Source: an uncultured Bacilli bacterium (lineage in GTDB: Bacteria > Bacillota_I > Bacilli_A > ML615J-28 > CAG-698). Taken from it: a stretch of 64,000 nucleotides of DNA. Position 1 is the first letter of the stretch. Each line of letters starts with the position of its first letter. The position numbers and the translations under genes were made by a program. The notes under the pieces were generated by a model that saw only the letters and a list, made by a program, of their open reading frames with translations, did not search any database and had not been told where the DNA came from. Below are positions 1 through 62,420 of this stretch, piece after piece. The stretch covers positions 9,871 to 73,870 of the forward strand of contig CANQVC010000003.1 of NCBI GenBank assembly GCA_947627195.1, read 5' to 3'.

Positions 1-826
1 AAGTGAACTTTGTATCGATTGCTTTCATTTGCATGCAATCACTGACAATTAAACCTTTAAAATTGAATTTATGGCGTAAAATATCTGTTAGAATAGTTTT
101 TGATAAAGTAGTCGGGTAATCTTTATCTATTTTATCAAAAATTATATGAGCGCTCATAATAGCATCAACACCAGATTCAATAGCTTTTTTAAATGGCAAT
201 AATTCAATTTCTTCTAATCGTTTCATGTCATGAGAAACAGTTGGTAAACCTAAATGGCTGTCAACATTAGTGTCACCATGTCCTGGAAAATGTTTTGCAG
301 TTGCAATAACATTTTCACTTTGTAAACCACGAATATAAGAAATACCATATTCACTAACAACATTAGGATCATCAGAATAACTTCTAACACCAATAACAGG
401 ATTAGCTGGATTATTATTGACATCTAATGATGGTGCAAGATTCATATTAATTCCTAAATGAGTTAATTCTTCACCCATTCCTTTACCAACAATTTCAGCA
501 TTTTGTTTATTATCAGTGGCTGTTAAAGTCATATTTCCTGGCCAAAATGTTGCACCATCCATAATTCTTGTAACCATTCCACCTTCTTGATCAATGGAAA
601 TAAAAGGAATTGTTTTAGTATTTTTAATTACTTCTTGATGAATTTTTAAATTTAATTCAATTAATTGTTTTAAGGAAGAAATATTTCTAGTAAATAAAAT
701 AATATTTGCTACTTTATATTCTTCAATTAAAATACGTAAATGTTCATCATATTCATAACCATCAAATCCAGCAATAATTAATTGTCCCAATTTTTCTTTT
801 AGTGTCATTTCTTTTATTGTTCTCAT
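1..826 (-). CDS. nagZ: GH3 beta-N-acetylhexosaminidase (NagZ-type), 3' end runs off window
   Basis: Not in ORF track. Manual translation from ATG at 826 gives MRTIKEMTLKEKLGQLIIAGFDG; contains DQEGG and KHFPGHGDTNVDSH motifs. Confidence 0.9.
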   Translation of the reverse strand, partial: MRTIKEMTLKEKLGQLIIAGFDGYEYDEHLRILIEEYKVANIILFTRNISSLKQLIELNLKIHQEVIKNTKTIPFISIDQEGGMVTRIMDGATFWPGNMTLTATDNKQNAEIVGKGMGEELTHLGINMNLAPSLDVNNNPANPVIGVRSYSDDPNVVSEYGISYIRGLQSENVIATAKHFPGHGDTNVDSHLGLPTVSHDMKRLEEIELLPFKKAIESGVDAIMSAHIIFDKIDKDYPTTLSKTILTDILRHKFNFKGLIVSDCMQMKAIDTKFT

Positions 827-838
827 AAAATTAACCTT

Positions 839-1975
839 TTAATATAACAAATATTTCTTTCTTGTCATTTTAAATTTTTCTGTATCTTCATCTATAATTT
901 CAAATTGTTTTTCTAATGGATAAAGATCATCCATAATATATTGACATCCTGTATTAAATTGTAACATGCAATGATTTCCTTCTTTATATGGTGGAAGAAT
1001 TTTAAAATCGTTTGGATACATATCACGTATAACTTTCAACATTGCCCATCCAGTATGAACAGGTAAAAAGCCATCACGATCTAATACATGTACTTGAACA
1101 CCACCACATACTACTTTTTCATGTTTAGAAAATGTTGGGGTAAAATATTGTCTACGAAAATAAACACTAGGTAAACATAAACTATTTAATTTATCAGCTA
1201 AAGATTTAGGATCAATATATGGGGCACCAACAAATTCAAATGGAGCAGTTGTTCCTCTTCCTTCACTGACATTTGTGCCTTCAAAAATACATGTAGCATT
1301 ATAAACAATAGCAGTATTAACAGATGGAAAATTTGGTGAAGGCATTATCCATAATAAACCAGTTTCATCATAATATTTTTTACGATCATAACCTTCCATT
1401 TTTATTAAATGTAATTTACAGCCAATGCCAAATTCTTCATTAAACATTTTAGCTAATTCAGCAATTGTCATACCATGACGTTGAACTATTGGATAATATC
1501 CAACAAATGAACGATAATTAATATCTAATATATTTCCTTCAACATCTACACCATTAATTGGATTTGGTCGATCAAATACCACAAATTCTTTATTATGCTC
1601 TTTACAAGCCATCATGGCATATGCCATTGTATAAATATATGTATAAAATCTAGATCCACCATCTTGAATATCAATACATAATACATCAATTGTATCTAAC
1701 ATTTCTTTTGTTGGACGTTTATCTTTTGTATATAGACTATATACAATAATACCTGTTTCTTCATCAATATATGAATCGAAACGAACACCAGCTTGCATAT
1801 GTCCTCTTACGCCATGTTCTGGTGAAAACAAACAAACTAAATTAACTTTTTCTTTTAAAACATCAATTGAAGAGCGAAAAGAACTATCTACACCAGTAGG
1901 ATTTGTAATAAGTCCTACTCTTTTTCCTTTGAAAAAATCTAAATGTTGGTCAATACAATCAATTCCTAATTTCAT
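839..1975 (-). CDS. namZ: Exo-beta-N-acetylmuramidase NamZ (DUF1343/YbbC family)
   Basis: GLITNPTG, FSPEHG, DIQDGGSRFYTY, DRPNP, SEGRGT..PFE motifs; no signal peptide. Confidence 0.9.
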   Translation of the reverse strand: MKLGIDCIDQHLDFFKGKRVGLITNPTGVDSSFRSSIDVLKEKVNLVCLFSPEHGVRGHMQAGVRFDSYIDEETGIIVYSLYTKDKRPTKEMLDTIDVLCIDIQDGGSRFYTYIYTMAYAMMACKEHNKEFVVFDRPNPINGVDVEGNILDINYRSFVGYYPIVQRHGMTIAELAKMFNEEFGIGCKLHLIKMEGYDRKKYYDETGLLWIMPSPNFPSVNTAIVYNATCIFEGTNVSEGRGTTAPFEFVGAPYIDPKSLADKLNSLCLPSVYFRRQYFTPTFSKHEKVVCGGVQVHVLDRDGFLPVHTGWAMLKVIRDMYPNDFKILPPYKEGNHCMLQFNTGCQYIMDDLYPLEKQFEIIDEDTEKFKMTRKKYLLY

Positions 1976-2718
1976 TTTTTATCTCCTTTATTTGTTTTTG
2001 TATCATCTTCATAATTTTCTCTAACATCTTCATCTTTATTATCTAATTCATCTTTAGAAGAAAAACCATTATCTTGTAAATATGTATAAATTCTTCGCGA
2101 AATTAAATAAATGAGAAATAATGGAACACTAATACCAAAGAAAATCCAAATTGGTAAAAGTGGTAAATATATTATTAACATTAAAAAAGCCACAATAACT
2201 ACTACTTCTAAAAGAGTTGAGGGAATATATTTAAAAGCCATAAAGAATGATAATCTTATTTTTTGCATGAATGTTGCTCTAAAATATACGGTAACAATTA
2301 TTGTTTGAATACCAGCCATTAATATAACAAAAGCAAAACCCATCATTAAAAATACACATATAAATGCAATTGTATACCAAGTACTATCTCCTGGATATAA
2401 ATCCTGAGATGTTTCACCTAAAACACCATCATACCATAAATATGCATATCCTGAAATGCCTATCAGAGCAACTAATAAAATTCCAAAGCCAATTGTTTCT
2501 TTAAAAAGTAAGGCAAAATTACGAAAATATGGTTTGATTACTTCTCTTGTATATTCATCTTTAGCATCTTTAATTGATTTAAAACAAGCCGATATTGATG
2601 TAAAGATAGTGATGATACCAAGTGATGTAATTAATGTCAATACATTTAAGACAAATAATCGCCATAACCAATCAAAGAAAGTAAATAATTTACCATTACC
2701 AATATTTTCTTCTTTCAT
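1972..2718 (-). CDS. DUF624/YesL-like membrane protein
   Basis: Multi-TM; N-terminal 'DWLWRLFVLNVLTL..SLGIIT' and 'YFRNF' pattern typical of this sugar-ABC-associated family. Confidence 0.7.
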   Translation of the reverse strand: MKEENIGNGKLFTFFDWLWRLFVLNVLTLITSLGIITIFTSISACFKSIKDAKDEYTREVIKPYFRNFALLFKETIGFGILLVALIGISGYAYLWYDGVLGETSQDLYPGDSTWYTIAFICVFLMMGFAFVILMAGIQTIIVTVYFRATFMQKIRLSFFMAFKYIPSTLLEVVVIVAFLMLIIYLPLLPIWIFFGISVPLFLIYLISRRIYTYLQDNGFSSKDELDNKDEDVRENYEDDTKTNKGDKK

Positions 2719-2755
2719 TATTTCACCACCTTTTTTACTTCTTTTATTTTAGCAT

Positions 2756-2784
2756 ATTCTAGCAAAAAATACAATAAAAATCAA
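2756..2784 (-). promoter_or_regulatory. Sigma70 promoter for DUF624-namZ-nagZ
   Basis: TTGATT-17 nt-TAGAAT with extended -10 TG. Confidence 0.55.
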
Positions 2785-2799
2785 CGAGAATGAAGCCAC

Positions 2800-2830
2800 A
2801 AAAAAAGACCTAAGGAAAACCTTAGATCTT
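2800..2830 (-). terminator. Intrinsic terminator after SBP gene
   Basis: AAGATCTAAGG-TTTT-CCTTAGGTCTT followed by T run. Confidence 0.75.
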
Positions 2831-2842
2831 TATTTTCAATCA

Positions 2843-4636
2843 TTAGCTATAAGCAGCTGCTAATAAGTTTTGAATTCTATCAGCTTCACCAGCTATAGCA
2901 TCAGCCCATGAGCTTTTTTTACCTGTCATATATCCTCTAATATTTTCTACAAATGTACCAGAATATGTACTTACAACAGGGTTATCTGAAGTTGATAATG
3001 GTTCAAAGAATGAAATATCTTTTAATCTTGATTTAACGTAAACCATGGCATCAACACTTGCTGGAGAATCAGTGAATTTTTGAACAGTTCTTAGTCTTGC
3101 AGCTTCTTCATCATATCCACTATCTGGACCTTTATAAAATTCTCTAGTCTTCTTGTAATACATCATAACTGCTAGGTAAATATTTTCAGGATTAACTTCG
3201 TTTCCATATTTTGCATATTCGTTTTGTCTACCAACAGGCATTACCCATGTAGCAGTTCCACCAAGACCAACATGATAATCTTCTTTCTTACCAGTTAATG
3301 ATGGGAATGGAACATATCCATATTGAGTTGTACCTTCACCCCATTGATTATTAGTCCATCTACCAGCATCTCTTACGAACCATAAGTCACCAGTATTGAA
3401 TAATGCTGTTTGATTATTCCATGATTCAACAGAACCATCAACTGCTGATAAACTACCATCAACTAATTGAGCATCATATAAGTTTTTCATTAAATCTGCT
3501 GCTTTAGATTCAGCTTCTGCTTCTAGATAAACTTTCATTGCATATGGATCACAAATGTTAGTTCCACTAGCATTTACTAATCCAACCCAGTAATAAACAA
3601 CATGACCAGCTACTGCATGGTATTCTTTTTGTTGTGCATCTGGTAATGAATTCATAGCAGCTTGTGCTTTTGTACAATATGTTAAGAAATCATCATAACT
3701 CCATTCATCATCTAAGAATGCTTGTGCAGGTTCTTTTAATGATGGGTCAATTGCATTTAAAGATTTCCATAAGTTAACATTGTAATACATAACATTGTAA
3801 ATATCTGCATCACCATTTGTTACAGAATATAATTTACCTTGATATGTTCCTGATTTTTTATAAACAGGGTCTAAAATTTCTGTATTATCATCATATGTTC
3901 CATATTTTTGATAGAAATCAGATACATCGATTAAGCAGTTACCAGCAACGAATGTTGGAATTTGACTGTCTGGAACAGTAAGGAAATCAAAATCAGATAT
4001 ATTTTTTCTTCCTTGGTCAAGAATATAATTCCATCTTGCAGGTCCCCAATCGGCATTTGAAGGATATGCTACAGCTTCAAGTGAACAGTTGAATGTTTGT
4101 TCAACCCAGTTCCAAGCTGCAACTCTTGCATCTTTATCATCACCAGCATATGTTAATGAACCAGGAATTGGATTACCTTGATCATCTACATAAACAAATG
4201 TTGGGTCAGTTTCATGTAATGCATGTGATGCATTAGCAATTTTAATTGTATAACCACCTAGGTCTGGATATGATCCTACAGCACCAGCTGTATTTACACT
4301 AAATCTAACAACTGCTGTATTTCCATCTTTATCTTCAGCTCCGATTACAACAATACCTTTACCAGTTGCTACACCTGTAACAAGTCCATTTTGGTCAACT
4401 GTTGCAGCTTCTGGTTTATCAGATGTCCATGTAACTGAAACTTCTTTTAATGTTTTAGCATCTACAGCTTTTAATTGTACTTGTGCATTAACAGCAATAG
4501 AGCTAACAGTAAGAGTTTTGCCATTTGATTGAATTAGAATTTTTCCAGTGCTACCATTAGTTTGTTCAGTATTACCACAACCAACTAAAACGAAAGCAAA
4601 GAAAAGCATCAAAAACATAGCCATAAACTTTTTCAT
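2843..4636 (-). CDS. Sugar ABC solute-binding lipoprotein with N-terminal Ig-like (Big_2) domain
   Basis: Lipobox LVGC; 'VTWTSDKPEAATVDQNGLVTGV' Big_2 signature; family-1 SBP features (MYYNVNL, YGYVPFP). Confidence 0.8.
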   Translation of the reverse strand: MKKFMAMFLMLFFAFVLVGCGNTEQTNGSTGKILIQSNGKTLTVSSIAVNAQVQLKAVDAKTLKEVSVTWTSDKPEAATVDQNGLVTGVATGKGIVVIGAEDKDGNTAVVRFSVNTAGAVGSYPDLGGYTIKIANASHALHETDPTFVYVDDQGNPIPGSLTYAGDDKDARVAAWNWVEQTFNCSLEAVAYPSNADWGPARWNYILDQGRKNISDFDFLTVPDSQIPTFVAGNCLIDVSDFYQKYGTYDDNTEILDPVYKKSGTYQGKLYSVTNGDADIYNVMYYNVNLWKSLNAIDPSLKEPAQAFLDDEWSYDDFLTYCTKAQAAMNSLPDAQQKEYHAVAGHVVYYWVGLVNASGTNICDPYAMKVYLEAEAESKAADLMKNLYDAQLVDGSLSAVDGSVESWNNQTALFNTGDLWFVRDAGRWTNNQWGEGTTQYGYVPFPSLTGKKEDYHVGLGGTATWVMPVGRQNEYAKYGNEVNPENIYLAVMMYYKKTREFYKGPDSGYDEEAARLRTVQKFTDSPASVDAMVYVKSRLKDISFFEPLSTSDNPVVSTYSGTFVENIRGYMTGKKSSWADAIAGEADRIQNLLAAAYS

Positions 4637-4656
4637 TTTTCTTCCTCCTTGTTTTT

Positions 4657-4728
4657 ATTGTGTTATATCACAATAGTGTGAAAATGTTTACACATTATCA
4701 TTATACAACACATTTGTTTTTTTGGCAA
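4657..4728 (-). promoter_or_regulatory. Promoter with two palindromic operator candidates
   Basis: TTGCCA(4723-4728)-17-TATAAT(4700-4705); LacI/cre-like TGTGAAAATGTTTACACA 4677-4694; ATTGTG-N6-CACAAT 4657-4674. Confidence 0.6.
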
Positions 4729-4744
4729 GCATTTTTTACTTTTT

Positions 4745-5755
4745 TTATTTTTTTGTAATTATCTTATTAAGGTATTTATAAGATTTCCATACTTCAAAAT
4801 AAAATTTTTGATAAAACTCCATCAAACCAGTCCAATCGATCATCACTTCAGTGCATCCATCATGTCGCAATGAAGATATGGAAAATTGTAATAAATCATT
4901 TCCAAATCCATGTTTACGATATTTTTGATCAACACCAAGTGGACCGATTCCACCTAACGATTTAAACCTTTCCTTCCACATCATATTATATGCAATTATT
5001 TTAGTTTTTGCCCTATTTACACGGGAAAAAGCAATGATTGGATAATTTAAATCATTAGGATCACGAATTAATAAATAGTCGTCACCATTTCCACCTAAGG
5101 TGAAATAATCTTTAACTTCATATGCCCATCGATTCCAATGATTATTTAACATCATTTTTATCATTTCTTCTTGATCATCTATTGTCGCTTTAACATAATC
5201 ATAATTTTTATTTATAATATTATTTTCAATATTATTAATGTTATTAATATTGATATTAATATTATTATTATCATTAAATCTACAAATCAAATCGTGAGTA
5301 TAACGAGACCCTTGATACCCTCTTTTTTCCAACCAGACATCTGTTAGATTATCGAAGTCAGTTGCAACACCTGGAAAAAAATTACGAATATCTTTACCAA
5401 TGTGAATTTGCATTTCATCAAATGAACTTTCATTTAATATATTATGACAAATTTCTTCAGAAATATTAAATAATTTAGAACCTATTCCTTGTTTTCGATA
5501 TTTCTTTGCTACATAAAATAATGATATAAAAGCCATTTTTTTATAATCAGGTATTAAATCATCATCAAAGAATTTTAAAATGATAAAGCCAACTAAATTA
5601 TTATTAGAATCATATGCACATATTATTCTTTTTAATTTATAACAATCAATAGATTGATAAAACCAATCTTGGGGAATGGGATAAATCATTCCCATTTCCT
5701 GATTCCATAAAGATAAAATTTTTTCTTCTTTTTCTACTTCTTTAAAATACATCAA
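4745..5755 (-). CDS. Tandem-GNAT N-acetyltransferase (possibly glucosamine/glucosaminide acetyltransferase)
   Basis: Two acetyl-CoA motifs (YRKQGIGS, YRKHGFG), GIGPLGV; downstream of nagZ-nagB. Confidence 0.75.
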   Translation of the reverse strand: MMYFKEVEKEEKILSLWNQEMGMIYPIPQDWFYQSIDCYKLKRIICAYDSNNNLVGFIILKFFDDDLIPDYKKMAFISLFYVAKKYRKQGIGSKLFNISEEICHNILNESSFDEMQIHIGKDIRNFFPGVATDFDNLTDVWLEKRGYQGSRYTHDLICRFNDNNNINININNINNIENNIINKNYDYVKATIDDQEEMIKMMLNNHWNRWAYEVKDYFTLGGNGDDYLLIRDPNDLNYPIIAFSRVNRAKTKIIAYNMMWKERFKSLGGIGPLGVDQKYRKHGFGNDLLQFSISSLRHDGCTEVMIDWTGLMEFYQKFYFEVWKSYKYLNKIITKK

Positions 5756-5792: not shown

Positions 5793-6527
5793 TTACTTTA
5801 GTAATGAACATGCTTCTTCATCAGCTACAACAGTAACAACACCAGGATGTTTCTTTAATGCTGATGCTGGAAATTCTTCTGTAACTGGTCCATTAACTAA
5901 TTGATAAATTGCTTCAGCTTTGTTTTTACCACTTGCTACTAATAATACTGATTTAGCATTCATTATATTTTTAATACCCATTGTAATTGCATGTGTTGGA
6001 ACTTGATTAATATCATTATCAAAGAAACGTGCATTATCTTTTCTTGTCTTTTCAGTTAATGTCACAACTAATGTTTCACTTTCAAATGAAGTTCCTGGTT
6101 CATTGAAACCAATATGTCCATTAGCACCAATTCCTAATAATTGTAAATCAACAGTTACTTTATTTAAAGCATCACTATATTCTTGACAATTTTTTTGTAA
6201 ATCTTTACCTAATGATGAAGGTAAATGAACATTTTCTTCTTCAATATCAACATGATTGAATAAATTTGTATGCATGAATGAATAATAACTTTCAGGATGT
6301 TCTCTTGGTAAATCACAATATTCATCCAAATTGTATGTTTTCACATTCTTAAAGGAAACTTCACCTTTTTTATAGGCATCAATTAAATATTGATACAATC
6401 CTACTGGACTACTTCCTGTTGCTAAACCTAATACACAATTGGGTTTTTCTTTGATTTGATGAAGCATGATTTCTCCTGCAACTTTACTTAATTCTTGATA
6501 ATCTTTAACTTTGATGAATTTAATCAT
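5793..6527 (-). CDS. nagB: Glucosamine-6-phosphate deaminase
   Basis: GLATGSSP, NLDEY, LGIGANGHIGFNEP motifs. Confidence 0.95.
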   Translation of the reverse strand: MIKFIKVKDYQELSKVAGEIMLHQIKEKPNCVLGLATGSSPVGLYQYLIDAYKKGEVSFKNVKTYNLDEYCDLPREHPESYYSFMHTNLFNHVDIEEENVHLPSSLGKDLQKNCQEYSDALNKVTVDLQLLGIGANGHIGFNEPGTSFESETLVVTLTEKTRKDNARFFDNDINQVPTHAITMGIKNIMNAKSVLLVASGKNKAEAIYQLVNGPVTEEFPASALKKHPGVVTVVADEEACSLLK

Positions 6528-6528
6528 T

Positions 6529-8115
6529 TTACTTCTCCTCTTTTTTGTTATTCATCTTAATTGGTAACTTGCCATAAAAAACATTAGATTGTAAACAATT
6601 TGCTAAAGCTTTTAAAGATTCTTTTGTACAATCATATGTACAAATATAATCTTTACAATTAGGTAATAAATTAATATCATAAGGTGATCTTAAACTTATA
6701 ACAATTAATTTATCTTTGTCTAATGCTTCATACAACTTTGTTTGTATATCATCTTTTTTAAGGTTGTAAGTTACTAACAATATTTTATCATATTTTTGCT
6801 CTTTTTGCACTATATTTTCAAAATTTTTTAAGTCTTGATTAATAATTATTTCATCATAATTTAAATATTGATTTAAAGTTTCACATTTATTATTTGCATT
6901 ATCAACTAATGATGCTAAGTGAATTTCTGGAAATAAAATTAAAACTTTATCATTTTTCTTTAATGGTAATAAAGAATTGTCCACAACATGAGTAATACTT
7001 TTATTTGTTAATTCTATACTTAATTTTTCATTATTAATATTATTAATGATATTAATATTATTATTATTTAGATATTTTTGTTTTAATTTTAATATTTTTG
7101 TTACTGATTCATTAATTCTTGAAATGGAAATTTTTTTATCTTTAACTAAAGTTTGAAAAGCTTTAATAATTTCTAATTGTTCATTAATATCAGCTTTCCC
7201 ACAAAACATTAGTATATCATTTCCTGCCATTATACCATGATAAACAATTTCAGGAATGGAATATTTTTGCCATATAGCAGCCATTGTTAATGAATCAGTA
7301 ATAATAAGTCCTTTAAAATTCATCTTTTCTTTTAATAATTTAGTAATTATTTGATAAGATAATGATGCTGGTAAATTTTCATCAATTGAAGAATACAAAA
7401 TATGAGAAATCATAATACCATCAATATTTTCTTTTATACTTTTTTCAAATGGTATAAATTCACATTTTTTTAAATCTTCGATTGTTTTAGAAACAATTGG
7501 TAAGCCTAAATGACTATCAACATTTGTATCACCATGTCCAGGAAAATGTTTAAGTGTTGGTAATATTCCGCCATCTTGTAAAGCTTTTGCGGAAAGTGTA
7601 CAATATTTTGCCACAACTTCAGGATCATCTGCATAACTTCTAGAATTAATAACTGGATTTAAAGGATTATTATTAACATCAGCAACAGGAGCAAAATCTA
7701 AATCAAATCCTAATTTTTTTAAATCCATTCCTAATAATTTATTAACTAAATATATCTTATTAGGATCATCATAACAACTTGCACTTAAAGCCATTGCCCC
7801 TGGTACATATGTTATCCCACTTTCGATTCTTCTAACCATTCCTCCTTCTTGATCTAAACCAATCCATAAAGGATAAGTGGCATGACTTCTAATTGTGTCA
7901 TTTAATAATTTAACTTGTTCATTGTTTTCAATATTCCTTGCAAAATAAATAATTGAACCTATTTTTTCTTTTTCAATTAATATTTCTAATTGTTCATTCC
8001 AAGTTGTACCATGAAAAGCAAAGCATAACATTTGGGCAATTTTTTCTTCTAATGTCATTTTATCTAGCAATTCATTTATATTATTAATATTATTAATGTT
8101 GTTAATATTGTTCAT
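6529..8115 (-). CDS. nagZ: GH3 beta-N-acetylhexosaminidase, second paralog
   Basis: DQEGG, KHFPGHGDTNVDSH, ITDSLTM; C-terminal GH3 domain. Confidence 0.9.
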   Translation of the reverse strand: MNNINNINNINNINELLDKMTLEEKIAQMLCFAFHGTTWNEQLEILIEKEKIGSIIYFARNIENNEQVKLLNDTIRSHATYPLWIGLDQEGGMVRRIESGITYVPGAMALSASCYDDPNKIYLVNKLLGMDLKKLGFDLDFAPVADVNNNPLNPVINSRSYADDPEVVAKYCTLSAKALQDGGILPTLKHFPGHGDTNVDSHLGLPIVSKTIEDLKKCEFIPFEKSIKENIDGIMISHILYSSIDENLPASLSYQIITKLLKEKMNFKGLIITDSLTMAAIWQKYSIPEIVYHGIMAGNDILMFCGKADINEQLEIIKAFQTLVKDKKISISRINESVTKILKLKQKYLNNNNINIINNINNEKLSIELTNKSITHVVDNSLLPLKKNDKVLILFPEIHLASLVDNANNKCETLNQYLNYDEIIINQDLKNFENIVQKEQKYDKILLVTYNLKKDDIQTKLYEALDKDKLIVISLRSPYDINLLPNCKDYICTYDCTKESLKALANCLQSNVFYGKLPIKMNNKKEEK

Positions 8116-37586: not shown

Positions 37587-37599
37587 TATCTCAACCTCC

Positions 37600-40145: not shown

Positions 40146-40155
40146 TTGTTTCCTC

Positions 40156-42124: not shown

Positions 42125-42134
42125 TATTTTCCTC

Positions 42135-48336: not shown

Positions 48337-49662
48337 TTAATAAGGTTTTACATCCTTTGTCCAAGCTTTTAATAATAATTCTCTAGCTTTAACTAATGTT
48401 GGTTTATCATTTTTAACAAAGTCATGATATGTAAAGAAAACACATCCTTTAACATTTTCATATAAATCATTAACTTTCAATTGGTTAATTATTTCTTCAG
48501 GATTTCCCCAATTGCCATGATCAGTATAACGATAAATTCCTTGACCAATATATAATTTAACATTAGTCTTTTTTGCTGCCCAACTCCACCAATCAACTAA
48601 ATCAGCATATTTCACAATTTCAATTGTTTTGCCATCTTCTGCTACTTTAAAACTATCTAAGGAAAAATAATCTTGAGGAACAACATAATCTATCCAACCT
48701 TTTTCCATCCATAGATATATATCAGCATATAATCCTTCATAACATTGGAAACATGAATGATGATTATGTGAGCCATATTCCCATCCGCCTTCTTTACCAG
48801 CTTCAGCGAAATGACTAGAATGAGTACGATAAATACCAAATGGACTAATACCAAATTCTACTTTATGATCTAACGTATTTAACGCATCATGAATTTTCTT
48901 AATCATGGTATTAACATTTTCTCTTCTAAAATCATCTAAAGAAAGTTCAGGGTGTAATGCTTGATGTTTTTTTTCTTCAAGTGGATCACTAATTGGATCA
49001 TATGGATAAAAATAATCATCGATATGAATAGCTTTAATTGGATATTTTTTCGCAATTTCTAATACTGTATCAACAAGATAATCTTGAACTTTCGAACTAG
49101 CTGGATCTAATATTAATTTATGTTCAGATGTTTCAATAACACAATCAGGATATTTACGAGCAAAATTTTTAGGACTTAATTTTTCTTGTAAGAATTGTTC
49201 TTTTGTCATGTTAATTTCATTTAATTTTGTACCTCTAACACGATAAGGATTCATCCATGCATGTACATCAATTTCAGCTTCTTTTGCTTTATTAACAAAA
49301 TAACCAAATAAATCAAATCCAGGATCTTCATCTTCAGTTTTTGTCTTACTTAAATAACAACTCCATGGATTAATATCTGATTGGTAAAAGGCATCACATC
49401 CTGGACGTACTTGAAATACAACAGTATTTAAATGATATTTTTTACAAGTTTTAATGACATCATCCATTTGTTCTTTGTATTCTTCAATAGAATCACAAGG
49501 ATGTATATCAATATTTTCCACAGTAGAAAACCAAACACCTCTAGTTTCTTGCTTTTTTTCTTTCACATTTTCGTTAATCATGACAGGTTTATCAGTACCA
49601 TAATATGTAATAAATCCTTCACGTTCAACACATTCAATTTTCTTCATCATTATTCTCCTCAT
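48337..49662 (-). CDS. GHL10 (YddW/DigH-like) glycosyl hydrolase, cytoplasmic
   Basis: RGVW, FQVRP, HAWMNPYR, HIDDYFYP, FGISPFG, DYVVPQ. Confidence 0.85.
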   Translation of the reverse strand: MRRIMMKKIECVEREGFITYYGTDKPVMINENVKEKKQETRGVWFSTVENIDIHPCDSIEEYKEQMDDVIKTCKKYHLNTVVFQVRPGCDAFYQSDINPWSCYLSKTKTEDEDPGFDLFGYFVNKAKEAEIDVHAWMNPYRVRGTKLNEINMTKEQFLQEKLSPKNFARKYPDCVIETSEHKLILDPASSKVQDYLVDTVLEIAKKYPIKAIHIDDYFYPYDPISDPLEEKKHQALHPELSLDDFRRENVNTMIKKIHDALNTLDHKVEFGISPFGIYRTHSSHFAEAGKEGGWEYGSHNHHSCFQCYEGLYADIYLWMEKGWIDYVVPQDYFSLDSFKVAEDGKTIEIVKYADLVDWWSWAAKKTNVKLYIGQGIYRYTDHGNWGNPEEIINQLKVNDLYENVKGCVFFTYHDFVKNDKPTLVKARELLLKAWTKDVKPY

Positions 49663-50593
49663 ATAATTCTTCTAAAATTGTTATTTCTTGTTTATTAGCA
49701 TCTAATCTTACTTTTAAGCCAATTGGTAAATTAATAAAAGGAAATTGATGACCAGATGCAAAATGATAAATAACAGGTTTATTTAAATTTTGAAAATATT
49801 CTTGAATTAATTCATCAACTTCAGGTTCATCATCATCTTTATGACAATTTGTGAAATGTCCAAAGATAAATCCTTTAGCTTCATCAAGATATCCCCCTAA
49901 TCTTAATTGAGCAAACATCCGATCAATATTATATGGTTGTTCATCAACTTCTTCAATAAAAACAATTTTATCTTTAAAATCAATTTCATAAGGAGTACCT
50001 ATCAAATCGGATATTAAACATAAGTTGCCACCACTCATTTCTCCTTCAACAATTCCTCCACATAATGTTTTAGCATCATTATAAGGATTTTTTAAAACAC
50101 GGTTTAAAGTGTTAGTTGTCAATAATGTTTTAAATTCATTTAAGGAAAATTCATCACATTTAGGACTTGATATAAATATTCCAACTTGTCCATGAACCGT
50201 TGGTAAATAACTATATTTATATAAATTATTTAATAATACAGTAATATCACTAAATCCCATAAATAATTTAGGATGTTTTTTAATCATTTCATAATCTATT
50301 TTATCAACAATTCTACTTGCTCCACAGCCACCTTTATAACATATAATAGCTTTTATATTAGGATCTAAAAACATTTGATGAATGTCATTTATTCTTTCTT
50401 CATCATTTCCTGCTAAATAGCCATGTTGTAAATAACATGTTTTGCCAAATTGAACATTATAACCAAAAGAAGAAAAAATATCTTCAATTTTTTTCATTCT
50501 TTCTTGTTGTTTATTTCTTGAAGAAGGGCAAATAAAACCAATTGTATCCCCTTTCTTCAACATTCTTACTTGACATTTATTCATATTAATCAC
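49634..50593 (-). CDS. ldcA: S66 LD-carboxypeptidase
   Basis: GFSDIT, GGNL, FIEEVDE, SGH triad motifs. Confidence 0.9.
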   Translation of the reverse strand: MINMNKCQVRMLKKGDTIGFICPSSRNKQQERMKKIEDIFSSFGYNVQFGKTCYLQHGYLAGNDEERINDIHQMFLDPNIKAIICYKGGCGASRIVDKIDYEMIKKHPKLFMGFSDITVLLNNLYKYSYLPTVHGQVGIFISSPKCDEFSLNEFKTLLTTNTLNRVLKNPYNDAKTLCGGIVEGEMSGGNLCLISDLIGTPYEIDFKDKIVFIEEVDEQPYNIDRMFAQLRLGGYLDEAKGFIFGHFTNCHKDDDEPEVDELIQEYFQNLNKPVIYHFASGHQFPFINLPIGLKVRLDANKQEITILEELYEENNDEEN

Positions 50594-51284
50594 TAAATGA
50601 ATTAGGTTTTACAGTAAATTTGCCATAATCTTGGACATTAAATGCTTGAGCATGTTCACATTTAGCTAAGCATCCACGAACATAAGTTAAATGAGTATAA
50701 TAATTATAATATTTAAAATCTTTACTGTTCATAATAAACCAATGTTTAGCAATAGCTTTTGTCCATAAATCATAACCTTCAGAACAATTAACTAAAATAT
50801 ATGGATCAAATCCTATTCTATCTTCCCAGTTTTCACAGAAATATACTGGAGAATACCATCTTTCAAGAGGTACTTTATCCCCCATATCAATGCCTGCATA
50901 AAATTGAGCATCAACTACAATTTTAGAACATGTTGCATGATCTTTATGCATACTATTTTTCCAATGAGTGAAAATTGCATTTGGACGATATTTACGAATT
51001 AAAGCTGCAACTTGTAATCTAACTTCATCATTATCAGGAAGTTCACCATCACAATAAGGGAATACAATTGATTCACCATTTAACATTTCCGCAAATTCTT
51101 TTGCTTCTTTTACTTTTTGCACACGATATTCTTCAACAGTCATTGTTTTGGGATTTCCTCTTTCACCTGCTGTTAAAGCAACAGTAATAATTCTATCACC
51201 TATTAATGCTTGTGTAGCTAATACACAACCACATGTTAACTCCATATCACCGATATGTCCACCAATTGCCATAAATGTTTTCAT
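50586..51284 (-). CDS. PIG-L/LmbE family de-N-acetylase
   Basis: GHIGDME variant of HPDDE, TAGE, HKDH. Confidence 0.8.
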   Translation of the reverse strand: MKTFMAIGGHIGDMELTCGCVLATQALIGDRIITVALTAGERGNPKTMTVEEYRVQKVKEAKEFAEMLNGESIVFPYCDGELPDNDEVRLQVAALIRKYRPNAIFTHWKNSMHKDHATCSKIVVDAQFYAGIDMGDKVPLERWYSPVYFCENWEDRIGFDPYILVNCSEGYDLWTKAIAKHWFIMNSKDFKYYNYYTHLTYVRGCLAKCEHAQAFNVQDYGKFTVKPNSFSD

Positions 51285-51314: not shown

Positions 51315-52370
51315 TTATTCAAACATTGTATCTAAATGAGTAAAGATATAATTTGCTAATCTTGCTCTGAATGGAATAATTTTATTATTTTGTCTTGTAG
51401 GATGTACACGGTTACTTAAAACGCAATATGCTACTTTATTTTGACGATCAATGACAATATTAGTGCCAGTAAAACCTGTATGCATAATCGTTTCATCACT
51501 AGCAAATTCTCCACAACAACATTGTTTTCCTTTCACAATCCAACCTATTCCTCTTCGATATGTATCTAAACTAATTCCTTCTTTTTCTTCTACTTGGGGT
51601 TTAAAGAATAAATCGATACTTTGTTTAGACAATATTCTTTTTCCTTTGTACATACCATTATCTAAAATCATTTTAAGAAAATGACTTAAATCTTTAACAC
51701 AACTGAATAAACCAGCATGGCCTGCAACACCATCTAATGTATGAGCAACTTCATCATGAACATAGCCACGATCTATTTTGTCACCTCTATCTTCAGTAGG
51801 GGCACATCTATTTACATCAGTTGGACAATACCCTGAATCAAACATTTCTAAAGGTTCAAGCAAGTTCTCTTTCACAAACTTATCTAATGGCATATTACTT
51901 ACTTTTTCAATAATCCATCCAAGTAAAATAAATCCTAAATCAGAATAAACCATTTTAGTGTTTTTTTCATATTCCTTTTCACAACTCATGATATTATCAT
52001 ATAATTCTTGTTTGGACAAGAAATGTCCATTTATTAAATCAGCTGGTAAACCAGAAGTATGAGTTAATAAATCCCATATTGTAACATCTTTATGAATAAA
52101 ATCAGGAAGAAATACTGATACATAATCATATAAACGAATCAATCCTCTTTCAGCTAACATCATTATTGAACTTGTTGTGGCAACAACTTTTGTACATGAT
52201 GCCATATCATAAAGAGTATTAATATCATTATCTTCTTCAACTGGATATAAACTCTTTTTGCCATATGCATGAAAATAAGTTTTGTCATTAATTATTAAAC
52301 ATAATGTTGCTCCAGGAAATACTCCATCTTTAACTGCTTTAGTCATTATTTCATTAACTTTTTCAATCAT
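51315..52370 (-). CDS. Beta-lactamase-fold serine hydrolase (AmiE-like)
   Basis: SCTK, LLTHTSG, YSD, GHAGLFS, HTGFTG. Confidence 0.8.
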   Translation of the reverse strand: MIEKVNEIMTKAVKDGVFPGATLCLIINDKTYFHAYGKKSLYPVEEDNDINTLYDMASCTKVVATTSSIMMLAERGLIRLYDYVSVFLPDFIHKDVTIWDLLTHTSGLPADLINGHFLSKQELYDNIMSCEKEYEKNTKMVYSDLGFILLGWIIEKVSNMPLDKFVKENLLEPLEMFDSGYCPTDVNRCAPTEDRGDKIDRGYVHDEVAHTLDGVAGHAGLFSCVKDLSHFLKMILDNGMYKGKRILSKQSIDLFFKPQVEEKEGISLDTYRRGIGWIVKGKQCCCGEFASDETIMHTGFTGTNIVIDRQNKVAYCVLSNRVHPTRQNNKIIPFRARLANYIFTHLDTMFE

Positions 52371-52378
52371 ATTGCCTC

Positions 52379-54583
52379 CTAATCTTCTGATGTCATAACT
52401 ATCTTATCATGATAACGACGATAGAAATTTTGGTAACATATTTTATCAATATCTTCTTCACTTAATCCTATTTTTTGCATTCCTTCTATAATACGATAAG
52501 CAAATGTTGCATCTTTTACTTCTTCTAAATTACTATTAGGAAAATCAGATAAATAATCCATAAAATCAAATCCAAAGCACACATTATCAACGCCCATAAT
52601 AGAAATAGCATATTTTAAATGTTCTAAAAAGCGATCTAATGTTTGATTGTTTTCATCTTTATCAACAAAATTATTAGCTAATGTCAATCCTAATAAACCA
52701 TCAACTTTCTTTAAAGCTTTCATTTGATCATCAGTGACATTTCTAACATGAGAACATAATTTCTTTACATTTCCATGGGAATAAATAATATTTTTATTAA
52801 CTACTTTTAAAGCATCATAAAAACTTTTTTCGTTTAGATGAGCTAAATCAATAATCATTCCTAATTGTTCCATTCTTTTTAGTAGACGAATTCCTTCTTC
52901 AGTAAAGCCTCTTTCAGGATTAGATTTAGCTCCTGTTGCATATTTATTTTCTTCATTCCATGTTACCATAGCATGACGAAATCCCATATTGTATAAAATA
53001 TCAATATCTTCAACACATTTTAAATTTCTTAAGCCTTCTAGTCCTAATACTACTTTAAAATTGGCAAGTTCTTTTAAATTGATTTCTTTTAATGCTATTT
53101 TACATGCTTCAATTAAGTCAAAGTCATTTGGTGAATACATTGTAAATATACTACCTTTAATAACACTTTGTGATAATTGTGGGACATGATATTTTTCAAA
53201 ACGATGATCAATTCCTTTTGTTTTGTTTGTCCATAAATCATATAACATATCACTATGACAATCAAACATACGTTTTATCGGAGTAGAAATCATTGTTCGA
53301 CATAAATCTTCATATTCTTCACGACGGATTGTTAAATGGACATGATCATTATTAACAAAAATAACAGCTCCACGTACCATGCCATTGTAATTTGAACTCA
53401 TAGAATAACCATATGCTCCAGTACAATATGTAACTAAAACATCATTTTCTTTAACTTTTGTTAATGGATAATCAGTAACAATAATATCCCCAGATTCACA
53501 GCATGGTCCAACTACATCAACAATTTCTTTATCTTGAATATTTTCATCAACATGATTAGCTATATCAACACTATATTTGGCTTGATATAAAGCAGGGCGA
53601 ATATTATCAGTCATTCCGCCATCAACGAAAACATATTTTTTACCTCCATATGTTTTCTTTGTTCCACCAACTGTATATAATGTGAAGCCAGCATCACCAA
53701 CAATACTTCGACCAGGTTCAATCATGACTTTTTTTAAACTTAAATGATATTTATCAATAAATGAATCAATAGTATTAGTAATGGCTTTAACCATTGATGC
53801 TAAATCTATTTCAGTATCTTCATTAGTATATTGAATGCCAAATCCTCCACCAAGATTTAAAACTTCAAATGAACAATTATTTCTTTCTTCTACATCTTTC
53901 ATGAAATTTAAAAGGGTACTTGTGGCATCTTGAAAACTTTTAGGTTGATGAATATTCGAACCAATATGACTATGAAAACCTAATAATGTTAAATATTGGC
54001 TTTCATTTGCTTTTTTAACTATTTTATCAATTTTATCTTTATCAAAAATTGATTCACCAAACTTACTACTTAATAAAGATGTTTGAATATATTCATGAGT
54101 ATGAGCACTAATACCAGGATTAACGCGTAATAAAATGGATACTTTAGTATTTTCTTCTTGAGCAATCTTTTCTAACTCTTCTATTTCTTCTAAATGGTCA
54201 ACAACAATATAACCAACATGATGTTTAATTGCATATTTTAATTCACTTGTCGTTTTATTGTTTCCATGTAAAACTACTTTTTCCATTGGAAATCCACTAC
54301 GATTAATTATGTATAAATCTCCTTCACTTACACTATCTAATCCCATACCATATTCATGTATTATTTGCATCATATATGGACATAAAAAAGCTTTAGTAGC
54401 ATAAACTGTCATACATTCATATTTATTACTTTGAAAATTTTCTTTTAAAACATCTAATTTATGACGAATGTGTTTTTCATCATAAACATATAATGGTGTT
54501 TTATATCTAGTTGCTAATTCTTGCAATTTAAATGAACCAACATATAATTCATTATTTTGAACTTTCATAGAGATTGTTCTCAT
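52379..54583 (-). CDS. lysA: Diaminopimelate decarboxylase fused to M19 metallo-dipeptidase
   Basis: N-half YATKAF, HSHIGS, EPGR, CESGD, GAYG; C-half DCHSD, LEG, DLAH, YSHGN, RN, GFDF. Confidence 0.9.
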   Translation of the reverse strand: MRTISMKVQNNELYVGSFKLQELATRYKTPLYVYDEKHIRHKLDVLKENFQSNKYECMTVYATKAFLCPYMMQIIHEYGMGLDSVSEGDLYIINRSGFPMEKVVLHGNNKTTSELKYAIKHHVGYIVVDHLEEIEELEKIAQEENTKVSILLRVNPGISAHTHEYIQTSLLSSKFGESIFDKDKIDKIVKKANESQYLTLLGFHSHIGSNIHQPKSFQDATSTLLNFMKDVEERNNCSFEVLNLGGGFGIQYTNEDTEIDLASMVKAITNTIDSFIDKYHLSLKKVMIEPGRSIVGDAGFTLYTVGGTKKTYGGKKYVFVDGGMTDNIRPALYQAKYSVDIANHVDENIQDKEIVDVVGPCCESGDIIVTDYPLTKVKENDVLVTYCTGAYGYSMSSNYNGMVRGAVIFVNNDHVHLTIRREEYEDLCRTMISTPIKRMFDCHSDMLYDLWTNKTKGIDHRFEKYHVPQLSQSVIKGSIFTMYSPNDFDLIEACKIALKEINLKELANFKVVLGLEGLRNLKCVEDIDILYNMGFRHAMVTWNEENKYATGAKSNPERGFTEEGIRLLKRMEQLGMIIDLAHLNEKSFYDALKVVNKNIIYSHGNVKKLCSHVRNVTDDQMKALKKVDGLLGLTLANNFVDKDENNQTLDRFLEHLKYAISIMGVDNVCFGFDFMDYLSDFPNSNLEEVKDATFAYRIIEGMQKIGLSEEDIDKICYQNFYRRYHDKIVMTSED

Positions 54584-60519: not shown

Positions 60520-60544
60520 TTTATCACCTCATTATTTAAATTTA

Positions 60545-60806
60545 AAAAAGTCCTCGATAGAAAAAAATCTATCAAGGACGAATAATATTATCCGCGGTGC
60601 CACCTTGGTTTCACGAAAATCGTGCACTTTTTAGGATACTTACATATCCCTAGCAACTTACGTATGCTTTCACGTTGCAGAATAATTTGATATAAATCAT
60701 TTCACTGCACCCTCCACGGTCCATTTGACAAACTGTATCTTACCTGACTCTCACCATCACAGGCTCTCTTTGAAGTCATATTTGCCTTTATCTCCGTATC
60801 AACGGT
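60545..60806 (-). ncRNA. Trp T-box riboswitch with terminator
   Basis: AGAGAG and GGTGAGA stem I boxes, specifier TGG at 60721-60723, T-box AACCAAGGTGGCACCGCGG 60592-60610, terminator 60550-60579 + T run. Confidence 0.92.
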
Positions 60807-60812
60807 TTAAAA

Positions 60813-62420
60813 TTATTTACTTGCTCTAAAAGCATTTGAATTTTGAACAATAGCTTTAATTAAAGTATGACTACCATCTTCTCCATATTCCCAGAACATG
60901 ATACCACCTAAATTATTATCAATAACATATTTACATTTTAAATCAATACTTTGTTCATCATCATAACTAATGAATTGTTTGTTCTTTGAATCATATAAAT
61001 ATGGAGCTTTAGCTTGATCATCCCAATATCTTTGAACTTCTCCACCTAAACGACTTATATAATCACTATATATTTTAGTATAAAGAATTGTTTCACCTTT
61101 TTTAGTAGGAGTGGCTTTTGGAGCATAACTACCAGCTTCATAAATTCTACCATAGAATGCAGCGCCAAGAACTAGCTTTTTAGAATCAATTCCTCTACTT
61201 GTATATATCTTAACAGATGCATCACAACTACATTGACTAACAGTATATTCTGAATCAAATAAGGCAGTATGATGAGTTAAAGAGCCTCTATCATCTAAAT
61301 CATAAGTCATTAAGTTAATATAATCAAAATAATCATTTAATTTTTCTAATTCGTAACGTTCAGGTCCCCATGGTCCACCTGGTAAAGCTGCTGATAATAA
61401 ATAATTAGGATTAGCTGCTTTTAATTGACGATGAATTTCTTTAACTAATTCAGTATAATTAGGTCTATCAACACTTGTATCTCTTCCTGTTTCATAACCA
61501 GGATATTCCCAGTCTAAATCAATACCATCTATTTGATATTTTATAACCATATCAACCATGTTTTTCGCTAAAGTTTCTCTTCCTTCTTTTGTTGCGGCAG
61601 CATTACTGTAACGAGTACCTTCAGCACCATATCCACCAAATGAAACCATAACACGAACACCATGATTACGCATTTCAGTAACTTCTTTAATTCTACTAAC
61701 ACCACTCATATCAATTGCAAATGTTTCAGGATCAATAGATGCAAAACAGAAATCAACGATATCAATTGTATTCATATCTGTTTCATCAAATGGTTTATAA
61801 TTATAATTTGTTAAATAAGCGATAACTACTTTACCTTTTGATATATCTCTTAATTCTACTTTTGGAACATTAACTTTTAATTCAATTGAATCAAAAACTA
61901 AAGCAACAGTAATATTAGCAGTTAAGGTAACTACTTCATCATTATATGAGCGATGAAGTTCACCAGCGATATTTATAATTTCTGGTTTATCAGAATTCCA
62001 ACCAACACGAGCACTAATTCCATTTGGGCAATCAATAACTAATGGTAAAACAATATCTTCAGTTGCTTCACTAGGTATTATTTCTTGTAAATATTCTTTC
62101 ACATAATCAATTGCTTCTAATCTTTTAGTAGATTCATCTTTTAGAGCTTGTAAAGCACTTTCGAGATTTGTTAGGACATCATAATTTGTTACTAATGCTT
62201 TTTCATCATCATTTAATGCATCGTACATAGCTCTTGTTGAAGCGATTAATTCTTCATCAGATAATTGAACTTTGCTTACATCTGGTAACATTAAAATCAT
62301 ATTTTCTACTTCGTTTACTTTATTTTGGTTAACAACTTGTTTAGATGGATTATTGCCATCACAGCCAACACAAAATGCAACACAACAAATTAATATTAAC
62401 ATCAATACTTTTTTCATCAT
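60813..62420 (-). CDS. GH18 chitinase-family lipoprotein with N-terminal helical and Ig-like domains
   Basis: Lipobox CVGC; SFGG, DGIDLDWEYP, MTYD, FYG, WE. Confidence 0.9.
   Translation of the reverse strand: MMKKVLMLILICCVAFCVGCDGNNPSKQVVNQNKVNEVENMILMLPDVSKVQLSDEELIASTRAMYDALNDDEKALVTNYDVLTNLESALQALKDESTKRLEAIDYVKEYLQEIIPSEATEDIVLPLVIDCPNGISARVGWNSDKPEIINIAGELHRSYNDEVVTLTANITVALVFDSIELKVNVPKVELRDISKGKVVIAYLTNYNYKPFDETDMNTIDIVDFCFASIDPETFAIDMSGVSRIKEVTEMRNHGVRVMVSFGGYGAEGTRYSNAAATKEGRETLAKNMVDMVIKYQIDGIDLDWEYPGYETGRDTSVDRPNYTELVKEIHRQLKAANPNYLLSAALPGGPWGPERYELEKLNDYFDYINLMTYDLDDRGSLTHHTALFDSEYTVSQCSCDASVKIYTSRGIDSKKLVLGAAFYGRIYEAGSYAPKATPTKKGETILYTKIYSDYISRLGGEVQRYWDDQAKAPYLYDSKNKQFISYDDEQSIDLKCKYVIDNNLGGIMFWEYGEDGSHTLIKAIVQNSNAFRASK

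Follow-up and report, generated by a model that had tools for sequence, protein, structure and literature searches.

We analysed a stretch of 64,000 nucleotides (hereafter, the window) from the genome of an uncultured Bacilli bacterium (assembly GCA_947627195.1, contig CANQVC010000003.1, here C3, positions 9,871 to 73,870), which probably carries most of a conserved super-locus for the uptake and catabolism of peptidoglycan. The window is AT-rich (GC content 0.23-0.32), its genes are densely packed on the minus strand, and its long open reading frames (ORFs) are intact under translation table 11. Domains were called by Pfam and NCBIfam profile searches, and secretion calls were made with a simple script based on the N-terminus and on hydropathy, which is a heuristic and not SignalP. 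The genes of the locus are listed below; GH stands for glycoside hydrolase family, SBP for solute-binding protein, and homologous loci of other genomes are numbered with L.

2-826, minus strand: N-terminal part of a fusion of NagZ (GH3) and MupG (GH170); the whole 885-residue ORF (C3:8039-10696) extends to the left of the window.
839-1975, minus strand: homologue of the exo-beta-N-acetylmuramidase NamZ (GH171), cytoplasmic form; NamZ_N 288 bits, NamZ_C 154 bits.
1972-2718, minus strand: MusI-like membrane protein of six helices and 248 residues; NF052431 (MusI_fam) 54 bits, under its cut-off of 160.
2843-4636, minus strand: SBP597, a lipoprotein of 597 residues with Ig-like and oligosaccharide-type solute-binding domains; Big_2, lipobox LVGC.
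4745-5755, minus strand: tandem GNAT acetyltransferase; Acetyltransf_1 in two stretches.
5793-6527, minus strand: NagB, glucosamine-6-phosphate deaminase; TIGR00502 308 bits, cut-off 237.
6529-8115, minus strand: GH3b, a second NagZ-type GH3 beta-N-acetylhexosaminidase, cytoplasmic; 270 bits in Pfam, NF003740 213 bits, cut-off 207.
31683-45317, minus strand: ATP-binding cassette (ABC) transporter cluster as a whole, with the next eight genes.
31683-33008, minus strand: permease perm1; BPD_transp_1.
32998-34158, minus strand: permease perm2, called from transmembrane segments and homology only.
34158-37586, minus strand: DUF5696 protein of 1142 residues with an N-terminal membrane anchor; PF18952 391 bits, transmembrane segment at residues 6-24.
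37600-38280, minus strand: membrane protein with a Yip1 domain, conserved within the ABC module; PF04893 50 bits, homologues in 17 loci at 41-47% identity.
38280-40145, minus strand: NHL-repeat (beta-propeller) protein of 621 residues, secreted and C-terminally anchored; signal sequence and C-terminal transmembrane segment.
40156-41136, minus strand: permease perm3; BPD_transp_1.
41129-42124, minus strand: permease perm4, which forms the second permease pair with perm3.
42135-45317, minus strand: SBP1060, membrane-anchored, 1060 residues, with a C-terminal solute-binding domain; SBP_bac_8 and SBP_bac_1 at residues 653-957, transmembrane segment at 12-30.
45286-47139, minus strand: GH20 beta-hexosaminidase-like protein, cytoplasmic; Glyco_hydro_20 68 bits, Glyco_hydro_20b 37 bits.
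47718-48335, minus strand: QueH (epoxyqueuosine reductase), inside the conserved operon, as in L076 and L079.
48337-49662, minus strand: GHL10 (DUF187) glycosidase-like protein, cytoplasmic; PF02638 170 bits, kept in L076, L077 and L078.
49634-50593, minus strand: S66 LD-carboxypeptidase, LdcA-like; Peptidase_S66 128 bits, S66C 126 bits.
50586-51284, minus strand: PIG-L family de-N-acetylase; PF02585 71 bits, with PIG-L also in the L078 and L061 loci.
51315-52370, minus strand: cytoplasmic serine hydrolase of the beta-lactamase/PBP4B/AmpH fold, with an SCTK motif; PF00144 176 bits.
52379-54583, minus strand: fusion of LysA (diaminopimelate decarboxylase) and an M19 dipeptidase; TIGR01048 445 bits, cut-off 298, and M19 202 bits.

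The importer parts at the locus comprise two SBPs and four permeases, two of which were scanned, both with a BPD_transp_1 match. Homologues of perm1 and perm2 adjoin NamZ in relatives, and those of perm3 and perm4 are 57-64% identical in Acholeplasmataceae-type loci. The MusI-like protein, of a kind that serves as an accessory of ABC sugar importers, adjoins NamZ in most relatives, with 36 homologues of at least 200 residues in NamZ loci. SBP597 gave no SBP match by Pfam or by phmmer against the PDB, and its BLASTP comparison with SBP1060 was empty. Its AlphaFold model (pLDDT 80) matched oligosaccharide-binding SBPs in Foldseek (E value 1e-14, TMt 0.6-0.69); since the sequence searches gave no SBP match, it was the fold search alone that settled the assignment. 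Furthermore, contigs assembled from RNA libraries (two runs of one study) span positions 2835-4742, covering the SBP597 gene at 97-98% identity, which fits its transcription in a close strain; otherwise, only few short pieces of RNA contig cover the 20-kb stretch examined. The 621-residue protein had no Pfam match; its Atlas neighbours carry NHL repeats (score 0.98), and its homologue in the Acholeplasma equifetale locus (L061) has NHL and TPR matches.

The predicted ectodomain of the DUF5696 protein is glycoside-hydrolase-like, with a (beta/alpha)8 barrel between two beta-sandwiches in a model with a pLDDT of 56 overall and of 70-90 across approximately residues 700-1140. The best Foldseek matches were to GH129, followed by GH101 and GH31/36 (E values 1e-19 to 1e-9). 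Against GH129 the E value was 1e-19, with TMt 0.53-0.56 and a sequence identity of 10-12%, for a weak model of mean pLDDT 56. The invariant residues D984, D996 and E1035 are located in the barrel region. This suggests that the protein may be a membrane-anchored glycosidase. No DUF5696 match was found in 14 control genomes.

As for the enzymes, the whole NagZ-MupG ORF scored 312 bits for Glyco_hydro_3, 180 for MupG_N and 76 for MupG_C in Pfam, and its GH3 part misses the NagZ-type model NF003740 by one bit (206 against a cut-off of 207). GNAT proteins recur in the loci of relatives, including L061, L076 and L078. The GH20 gene overlaps the end of the SBP1060 gene, a position kept in L076, L078 and L079. 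QueH, inside this operon, has no obvious connection to peptidoglycan. Against NF008424 the S66 protein reached 139 bits, under the cut-off of 378, and the best NCBIfam match of the beta-lactamase-fold protein was PBP4B (165 bits, under the cut-off of 385). The latter protein is 33-35% identical to the neighbour of NagZ and NamZ in two Bacillaceae loci, and we regard it as a candidate MurNAc (N-acetylmuramic acid)-peptide amidase or D-peptidase. The LysA-M19 fusion holds the sole LysA-type decarboxylase of the host genome (one of one PF02784 matches) and is found in 4 of 17 related genomes; the joining of the two enzymes may be incidental, or it may tie the salvage of peptides to the supply of lysine. 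The idea that lysine is drawn from foraged meso-diaminopimelate (mDAP) was dropped: DapF is present in the wall-less genome G013, and it had no match in G011, G012 and G015, all of them metagenome-assembled genomes.

An earlier reading of these letters by a model (the original prediction) had named the enzymes of the window, and the Pfam, NCBIfam and fold searches agree that all of them are present at the places it gave. Its split between surface and cytoplasm also holds in our script: lipoboxes were found in the SpoIID/LytB and GH18 proteins that it had called surface lipoproteins, and in the 597-residue protein, whereas both GH3 proteins, NamZ, GH20 and GHL10, which it had called signal-less, have no signal sequence, and neither have the S66, PIG-L and beta-lactamase-fold proteins. 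The solute-binding protein that it had placed at 2.8 kb, for which Pfam gives Big_2 only, is recovered by fold search as an oligosaccharide SBP. Because the glycosidases and peptidases of the locus lack signal sequences, their substrates must be imported as oligomers.

A scan for NamZ in species-representative genomes gave 53 loci, whose ORFs were called and compared with all the ORFs of C3. Next to NamZ we found a GH3 NagZ in 41/53 loci, MurQ in 33/53, the ABC permeases of the window's cluster in 22/53, DUF5696 in 19/53 and MupG, fused or free, in 19/53. The 12 loci in which NamZ has no NagZ neighbour either are very short or belong to distant phyla (Sumerlaeota, Planctomycetes and others). 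In A. equifetale the order is perm4, perm3, NHL, Yip1, DUF5696, perm2, perm1, MusI-like, NamZ and NagZ, and it continues with a kinase, MurQ, GNAT, NagB, a ROK-family protein and PIG-L, all in one co-directional and tightly packed run. Among the full loci, the four closest to the window (L024, L025, L026 and L030) have perm1 directly followed by GH3b, NagB, GNAT, SBP597, MusI-like and NamZ. The surroundings of the LysA-M19 gene in four close relatives read Dus, LysA/M19, the beta-lactamase-fold protein, GNAT or PIG-L, S66, GHL10, QueH, GH20 and SBP1060, and in 3/4 of them this operon abuts the ABC module. The locus is contiguous over about 40 kb in the closest relatives. In G013, a genome of three contigs from the window's own family, two pieces of the locus lie 8 kb apart on one contig, and the locus thus runs unbroken for about 37 kb.

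The window keeps the gene order of these relatives, except for a 23.6-kb housekeeping block between perm1 and GH3b. The original prediction had described a dispersed system; in the closest relatives it is one contiguous locus, and it is this block that splits it in the window. Within the window's genus, NamZ and DUF5696 are about 9 kb apart in G075 and G077, and 32-58 kb apart in G000 (the window's genome) and G074; since the spacing differs among genomes of one genus, the split is recent. Across the order to which the window belongs (106 genomes in two families), manual cross-reading placed NamZ and DUF5696 on one contig, 7-58 kb apart, in 37 of the 91 genomes with NamZ. Chance co-location was rejected, as the gene order is conserved though the relatives' NamZ proteins are only 53-78% identical to that of the window. 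A link between the ABC module and MurNAc catabolism is supported, on the evidence of gene order. The assignment of the ABC cluster (31.7-45.3 kb) to the system, already made in the original prediction, is borne out by the 19/53 loci in which DUF5696 and permeases adjoin NamZ. Its view of all the enzymes as one set holds in part: the order is conserved in four close relatives, but GH18 and SpoIID stand outside the conserved locus.

The remaining features of the window are these:

8116-31682, no strand assigned: intervening block, with dUTPase-like, nrdG/nrdD and aromatic amino-acid genes, SpoIID, pyruvate kinase, an aminopeptidase and two ABC exporters.
22309-24099, minus strand: SpoIID/LytB-domain lipoprotein (lytic transglycosylase family); SpoIID 98 bits, TIGR02669 194 bits, lipobox LFSC.
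60813-62420, minus strand: GH18 lipoprotein, of the chitinase/endo-beta-N-acetylglucosaminidase type; GH18 224 bits.

The functions within the block were read from ORF translations, plus one Pfam match for the dUTPase. SpoIID lies inside this block, and its connection to the locus is indirect. The GH18 protein scored 135 bits as ChiD-like and 37 bits as Endo H-like, both under cut-off, and it is outside the gene order conserved in relatives. After it (window 62523-64000, C3:72393-77611) come two large proteins of 968 and 767 residues, each a putative fusion of an ABC ATPase and an FtsX-like permease.

Genes to the left of the window complete the MurNAc route. The original prediction had suggested a search for murQ, murK and nagA: MurQ, AnmK and a BadF/BadG-type sugar kinase precede the window on C3 by 2-5 kb, and contig C12 carries NagA (TIGR00221 333 bits, cut-off 226). 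The MurQ gene (C3:5109-5972) ends some 4 kb short of the window's left edge (TIGR00274 375 bits, cut-off 302); AnmK reached 458 bits for NF007142 (cut-off 435), and the BadF/BadG-type protein, a predicted sugar kinase, 75 bits. Every part of the MurQ pathway is present in the genome, with MurQ itself, AnmK as the source of the 6-phosphate of MurNAc (MurNAc-6P), plus NagA and NagB leading to fructose 6-phosphate. Neither a phosphotransferase system (PTS) nor MurR was found in the locus. In the L024 locus of a genus-mate, the NagZ-MupG fusion (L024:11147-14683, plus strand) has 1178 residues, and its extra C-terminal part takes the position of the BadF-type kinase gene; it may be a triple fusion.

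The left flank further holds an alpha/beta hydrolase, a signal-less Amidase_2 protein and a lipoprotein of 872 residues with aBig_2 domains. The latter (C3:1575-4193, minus strand) ends the locus and has homologues of 790-1444 residues in L024, L028, L030, L033 and L034; its 300 C-terminal residues gave no family match and no usable Atlas match, and it may act as a binder or hydrolase at the surface. To the right of the window, the C-terminal half of a 688-residue lipoprotein resembles the Amidase_2 protein by eye; it had no match in NCBIfam. A second NamZ copy (C19:12281-13546, minus strand) carries the lipobox ISGC. As the window copy is signal-less, the genome has one surface and one cytoplasmic NamZ.

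As the original prediction had noted, no wall-synthesis gene lies inside the window; elsewhere in the host genome (1.84 Mb, 78 contigs, 98% complete) a full set is encoded. The profile search found two transpeptidase genes of penicillin-binding proteins (PBPs), which NCBIfam names SpoVD/PBP2-like (class B) and PBP1A-family (class A), both slightly below cut-off, and one SEDS protein, whose gene adjoins that of MurG. MraY, MurB and DapF were each found, MurA scored 411 bits (cut-off 393), and the Ddl gene adjoins the gene of a MurF-like ligase. There are six Mur_ligase_M genes: MurC, MurD, MurE, the MurF-like ligase, a MurE-like paralogue and FolC. The best match of MurE is the mDAP-ligase model, above the NCBIfam cut-off, and MurE carries the motif DNPR, which we take to be a mark of the mDAP type. 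The window comes from an AT-rich gut bacterium that has a wall, with peptidoglycan of the mDAP type, and that belongs to a Mollicutes-related order of Bacilli.

Some of these ligases have unusual features. MurE (C20:16713-17999, minus strand) has 428 residues only and aligns to the mDAP-ligase model from profile position 99 on; its usual N-terminal domain is seemingly missing, and an asparagine-rich NINN insert is present. The MurF-like ligase (C4:17269-18909, minus strand) is extended at its N-terminus by a hydrophobic stretch of about 170 residues and scored 156 bits against the murF cut-off of 289. The extra MurE-like paralogue (C12:8678-10048, minus strand) reached 128 bits for murE, under the cut-off, and may be a variant ligase or one for re-use. 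Low-complexity NINNINN runs, typical of very AT-rich genomes, are inserted in otherwise conserved proteins (window 6529-8115 and 4745-5755, and the MurE on C20). The DNA of the window was found in metagenome runs from rabbit gut and other guts, in two studies, and one of these may be the source sample, whereas the RNA libraries belong to a third study; this reading of the habitat leaves out DNA runs with small shares (X7, X10). The joints in the DNA runs, with sides of just 20-30 letters, resemble repeats or sequence of other organisms.

Wall status was assessed in the 17 genomes behind NamZ loci with three markers (PBP, SEDS and Mur ligase), which agree in 17/17. Six of the 17 carry all three markers; the other 11 lack PBP and SEDS altogether and show a single Mur-ligase match at most, of FolC size. 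Nine of these 11 are labelled Acholeplasmataceae, Tenericutes, Mollicutes or Izemoplasmatales, including the cultured A. equifetale, and two "Bacilli". G013 is one of the 11, and it carries the entire super-locus, including AnmK and LysA-M19. At the level of the order, NamZ is present in 91/106 genomes and SEDS in 60/106, with 46 lacking it; NamZ was found in 41/46 SEDS-less and in 50/60 SEDS-bearing genomes. Ten wholly SEDS-less genera with NamZ comprise 29 genomes, with NamZ in 29/29; NamZ is absent from an eleventh genus without SEDS (g15, 2 genomes). In the window's genus, SEDS and NamZ occur together in 5/5 genomes. SpoIID-domain genes are in 24/57 genomes of the family, 13 of which are SEDS-less. 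Related genomes are not independent in these counts. As far as its accessible text goes, PMC10868615 independently predicts a mix of walled and peptidoglycan-deficient species in ML615J-28, RFN20 and Acholeplasmatales.

Since PBP, SEDS and Mur ligases are absent from 11/17 locus-bearing genomes, catabolism of foreign walls is the only use open to them. This retention argues that foreign peptidoglycan is a real substrate for the locus as a family. The original prediction had proposed catabolism of other bacteria's walls rather than recycling: its first half gains from these 11 genomes, and its second half does not stand for the walled host, in which ordinary recycling is possible because the full synthesis set, MurQ, AnmK and NagA are all present.

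Altogether, we estimate a probability of roughly 0.7 that most of a conserved super-locus for peptidoglycan uptake and catabolism lies in the window, a locus that would serve salvage of the own wall and, probably, use of foreign wall. The data establish which domains are present, where they are predicted to lie, that the gene order is conserved and how the set is distributed over genomes with and without a wall; from this we infer the substrates, the order of the steps and which surface protein would cut what. At the surface, wall fragments would be captured and trimmed by SBP597, the anchored SBP1060, the anchored glycoside-hydrolase-like DUF5696 protein and the NHL propeller; further surface parts elsewhere on the contig and in the genome could be the SpoIID lipoprotein, the Amidase_2 lipoprotein and the lipoprotein NamZ. 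The two ABC permease pairs would import oligomers, namely glycan oligosaccharides and muropeptides. In the cytoplasm, the glycan would be dismantled from its ends by NagZ (two copies), NamZ, MupG, GH20 and GHL10, and the stem peptide would be removed by Amidase_2 and/or by the beta-lactamase-fold hydrolase. S66 would trim the stem peptide, M19 would split dipeptides and LysA would convert mDAP to lysine. Finally, AnmK and the BadF-type kinase would yield MurNAc-6P, which MurQ, NagA and NagB would turn into fructose 6-phosphate. In the window's organism, recycling and foraging are indistinguishable from sequence, and the system can serve both.

Several points weigh against this interpretation. 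The substrates are inferred from family names, and S66, the beta-lactamase-fold protein, MurC, the MurF-like ligase and both PBPs are all under NCBIfam equivalog cut-offs. The wall status of relatives comes from three marker families in metagenome-assembled genomes and, at the order level, from SEDS alone. LysA being the genome's only copy, with DapF present, its domain may be plain housekeeping lysine synthesis. The folds nearest to DUF5696 (GH129, GH101, GH31/36) cut alpha-linked sugars and not the beta-1,4 bonds of peptidoglycan, and the model is poor across half its length. DUF5696 is also carried by 99/106 genomes of the order, with as many as 4 copies each, and it occurs where a genus has no NamZ (g5 3/3, g15 2/2, g22 2/2); being near-universal, multicopy and present there, the family is not specific to peptidoglycan, which indicates a generic module whose paralogues differ in substrate. 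No ABC ATPase or regulator was seen in the locus, and a shared ATPase elsewhere in the genome was not searched for. The RNA evidence consists of assembled contigs from one study, from which level and strand are not readable.

The alternative that survives best is ordinary recycling only, in which the bacterium, in the manner of the murQ operon of Bacillus subtilis or the AmpG-NagZ-AmpD-LdcA-AnmK-MurQ route of Escherichia coli, recovers the turnover products of its own wall and does not feed on foreign ones. It draws on the complete mDAP-type wall pathway of the genome, on the co-occurrence of SEDS and NamZ throughout the window's genus, and on AnmK, the LdcA-like S66, NagZ and the cytoplasmic Amidase_2, which mirror the cytoplasmic recycling set of Gram-negative bacteria. 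A system of this kind should vanish with the wall, yet the locus is intact in the 11 genomes without wall markers, contiguous as a whole in G013, and NamZ is as frequent in SEDS-less as in SEDS-bearing genomes of the order. Furthermore, no Mpl-type re-use ligase was identified, although no specific search for one was made. We thus consider recycling as the sole function unlikely.

A slightly less probable alternative, also unlikely in our view, is a general foraging of amino-sugar glycans (chitin, host N- and O-glycans) by the ABC/DUF5696 module, GH20, GH18 and GH3, the MurNAc genes being a side branch that shares the route of N-acetylglucosamine 6-phosphate. The best structural matches of DUF5696, which are alpha-N-acetylgalactosaminidases and the related GH129 and GH101, are in line with it, as are the presence of GH18 and GH20, classic families for chitin and N-glycans, the DUF5696 modules without NamZ in some genera and the finding of the window's DNA in animal-gut metagenomes. 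On the other side, NamZ, MupG, MurQ, AnmK and S66/LdcA have no known substrate outside peptidoglycan, according to family knowledge and to the accessible part of PMC8054146. In A. equifetale, the cytoplasmic NamZ stands in one gene run with the ABC module, the sole importer of that run, and GH18 is outside the conserved locus. Finally, the claim of the original prediction that the window's organism is itself wall-less, living on the peptidoglycan of other bacteria, is refuted by the gene content: its low GC content, its 1.84-Mb genome and its Mollicutes-related order with 46/106 SEDS-less genomes would suit it, but the genome, 98% complete, has intact ORFs for MurA-F, Ddl, MraY, MurG, SEDS and PBPs of classes A and B, which amount to the full synthesis pathway that it had named as counter-evidence.

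Returning to a super-locus that would serve both own and foreign wall, a wider proposal can be put forward tentatively, with the odds somewhat against it. The super-locus could be a dedicated peptidoglycan-feeding system that has outlived repeated wall loss in Mollicutes-related Bacilli, so that wall-less Acholeplasmataceae (A. equifetale among them), Izemoplasmatales and ML615J-28 genera would live partly on the walls of others; its core of DUF5696, NHL, Yip1, double permease and giant SBP could be a new Gram-positive "polysaccharide utilisation" module, this paralogue of which would be specific for peptidoglycan glycan. In wall-less lineages, the gene set cannot be for recycling, as they have no wall of their own. 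Peptidoglycan is a large pool of carbon and nitrogen in guts and sediments, its fragments are immune signals, and its dedicated foragers are poorly defined. The conserved gene set ties an uncharacterised ABC module (DUF5696, NHL, Yip1) to MurNAc catabolism and bears on the evolution of wall loss in Mollicutes-related orders, and A. equifetale ATCC 29724 offers a cultured test organism that carries the operon. Among the papers accessible to our literature search, DUF5696 was the subject of none; likewise, none dealt with NamZ in connection with Acholeplasma or described MurNAc scavenging in wall-less Acholeplasma or ML615J-28. PMC3563533 mentions murP in Spiroplasma melliferum in passing, and PMC10868615 speculates on scavenged muropeptides, its accessible text not treating recycling or muramic-acid genes.

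Among known systems, cytoplasmic recycling in Escherichia coli runs through AmpG, NagZ, AmpD, LdcA, AnmK and MurQ, and oligomeric fragments are imported before cleavage. The window's locus shares with it the cytoplasmic NagZ, an Amidase_2 protein (AmpD family), an LdcA-like S66 protein, AnmK and MurQ, and the proposed entry of fragments as oligomers ahead of their cleavage. Unlike the E. coli system, it has no AmpG-type permease, ABC importers with SBPs taking its place, and it includes NamZ and MupG.

The murQ-murR-murP-amiE-nagZ-namZ (ybbC) operon of Bacillus subtilis shares NagZ (GH3), NamZ (GH171), MurQ and an adjoining beta-lactamase-fold hydrolase with the locus; two Bacillaceae loci of this layout (L062 and L075) were retrieved. 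According to the accessible part of PMC8054146, the exo-lytic dismantling in B. subtilis runs from the non-reducing end, NagZ, AmiE and NamZ act as secreted enzymes, and uptake of MurNAc is by the PTS protein MurP. In contrast, the copies of the window's locus are signal-less, the NamZ on C19 alone having a lipobox by our script, and import is by ABC transporters. Compared with this operon, the locus adds AnmK, MupG, S66, M19-LysA, GHL10, GH20 and DUF5696.

With the MurP-MupG-MurQ system of Staphylococcus aureus the locus has in common the MupG (GH170) domain beside MurQ-pathway genes; here, however, MupG is fused to NagZ, stands beside NamZ and is without a PTS. The accessible text of PMC8054146 reports NamZ to be missing wherever MupG is present; against this pattern, the two are adjacent in 19/53 loci and in the window. 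Tannerella forsythia, a bacterium dependent on its neighbours, likewise takes up foreign peptidoglycan fragments (accessible parts of PMC5388701 and PMC5790795). It is a walled MurNAc auxotroph that uses the sugar for its wall, whereas the window's organism has MurA and MurB, and the wall-less relatives of the latter cannot use MurNAc anabolically. The enzymes themselves are those of known MurQ pathways. Relative to B. subtilis, E. coli, S. aureus and T. forsythia, the differences are that the exo-enzymes are all predicted to be cytoplasmic, that import would proceed through an ABC module with DUF5696, NHL and Yip1, that NamZ stands beside MupG, and that the system persists in genomes apparently without a wall.

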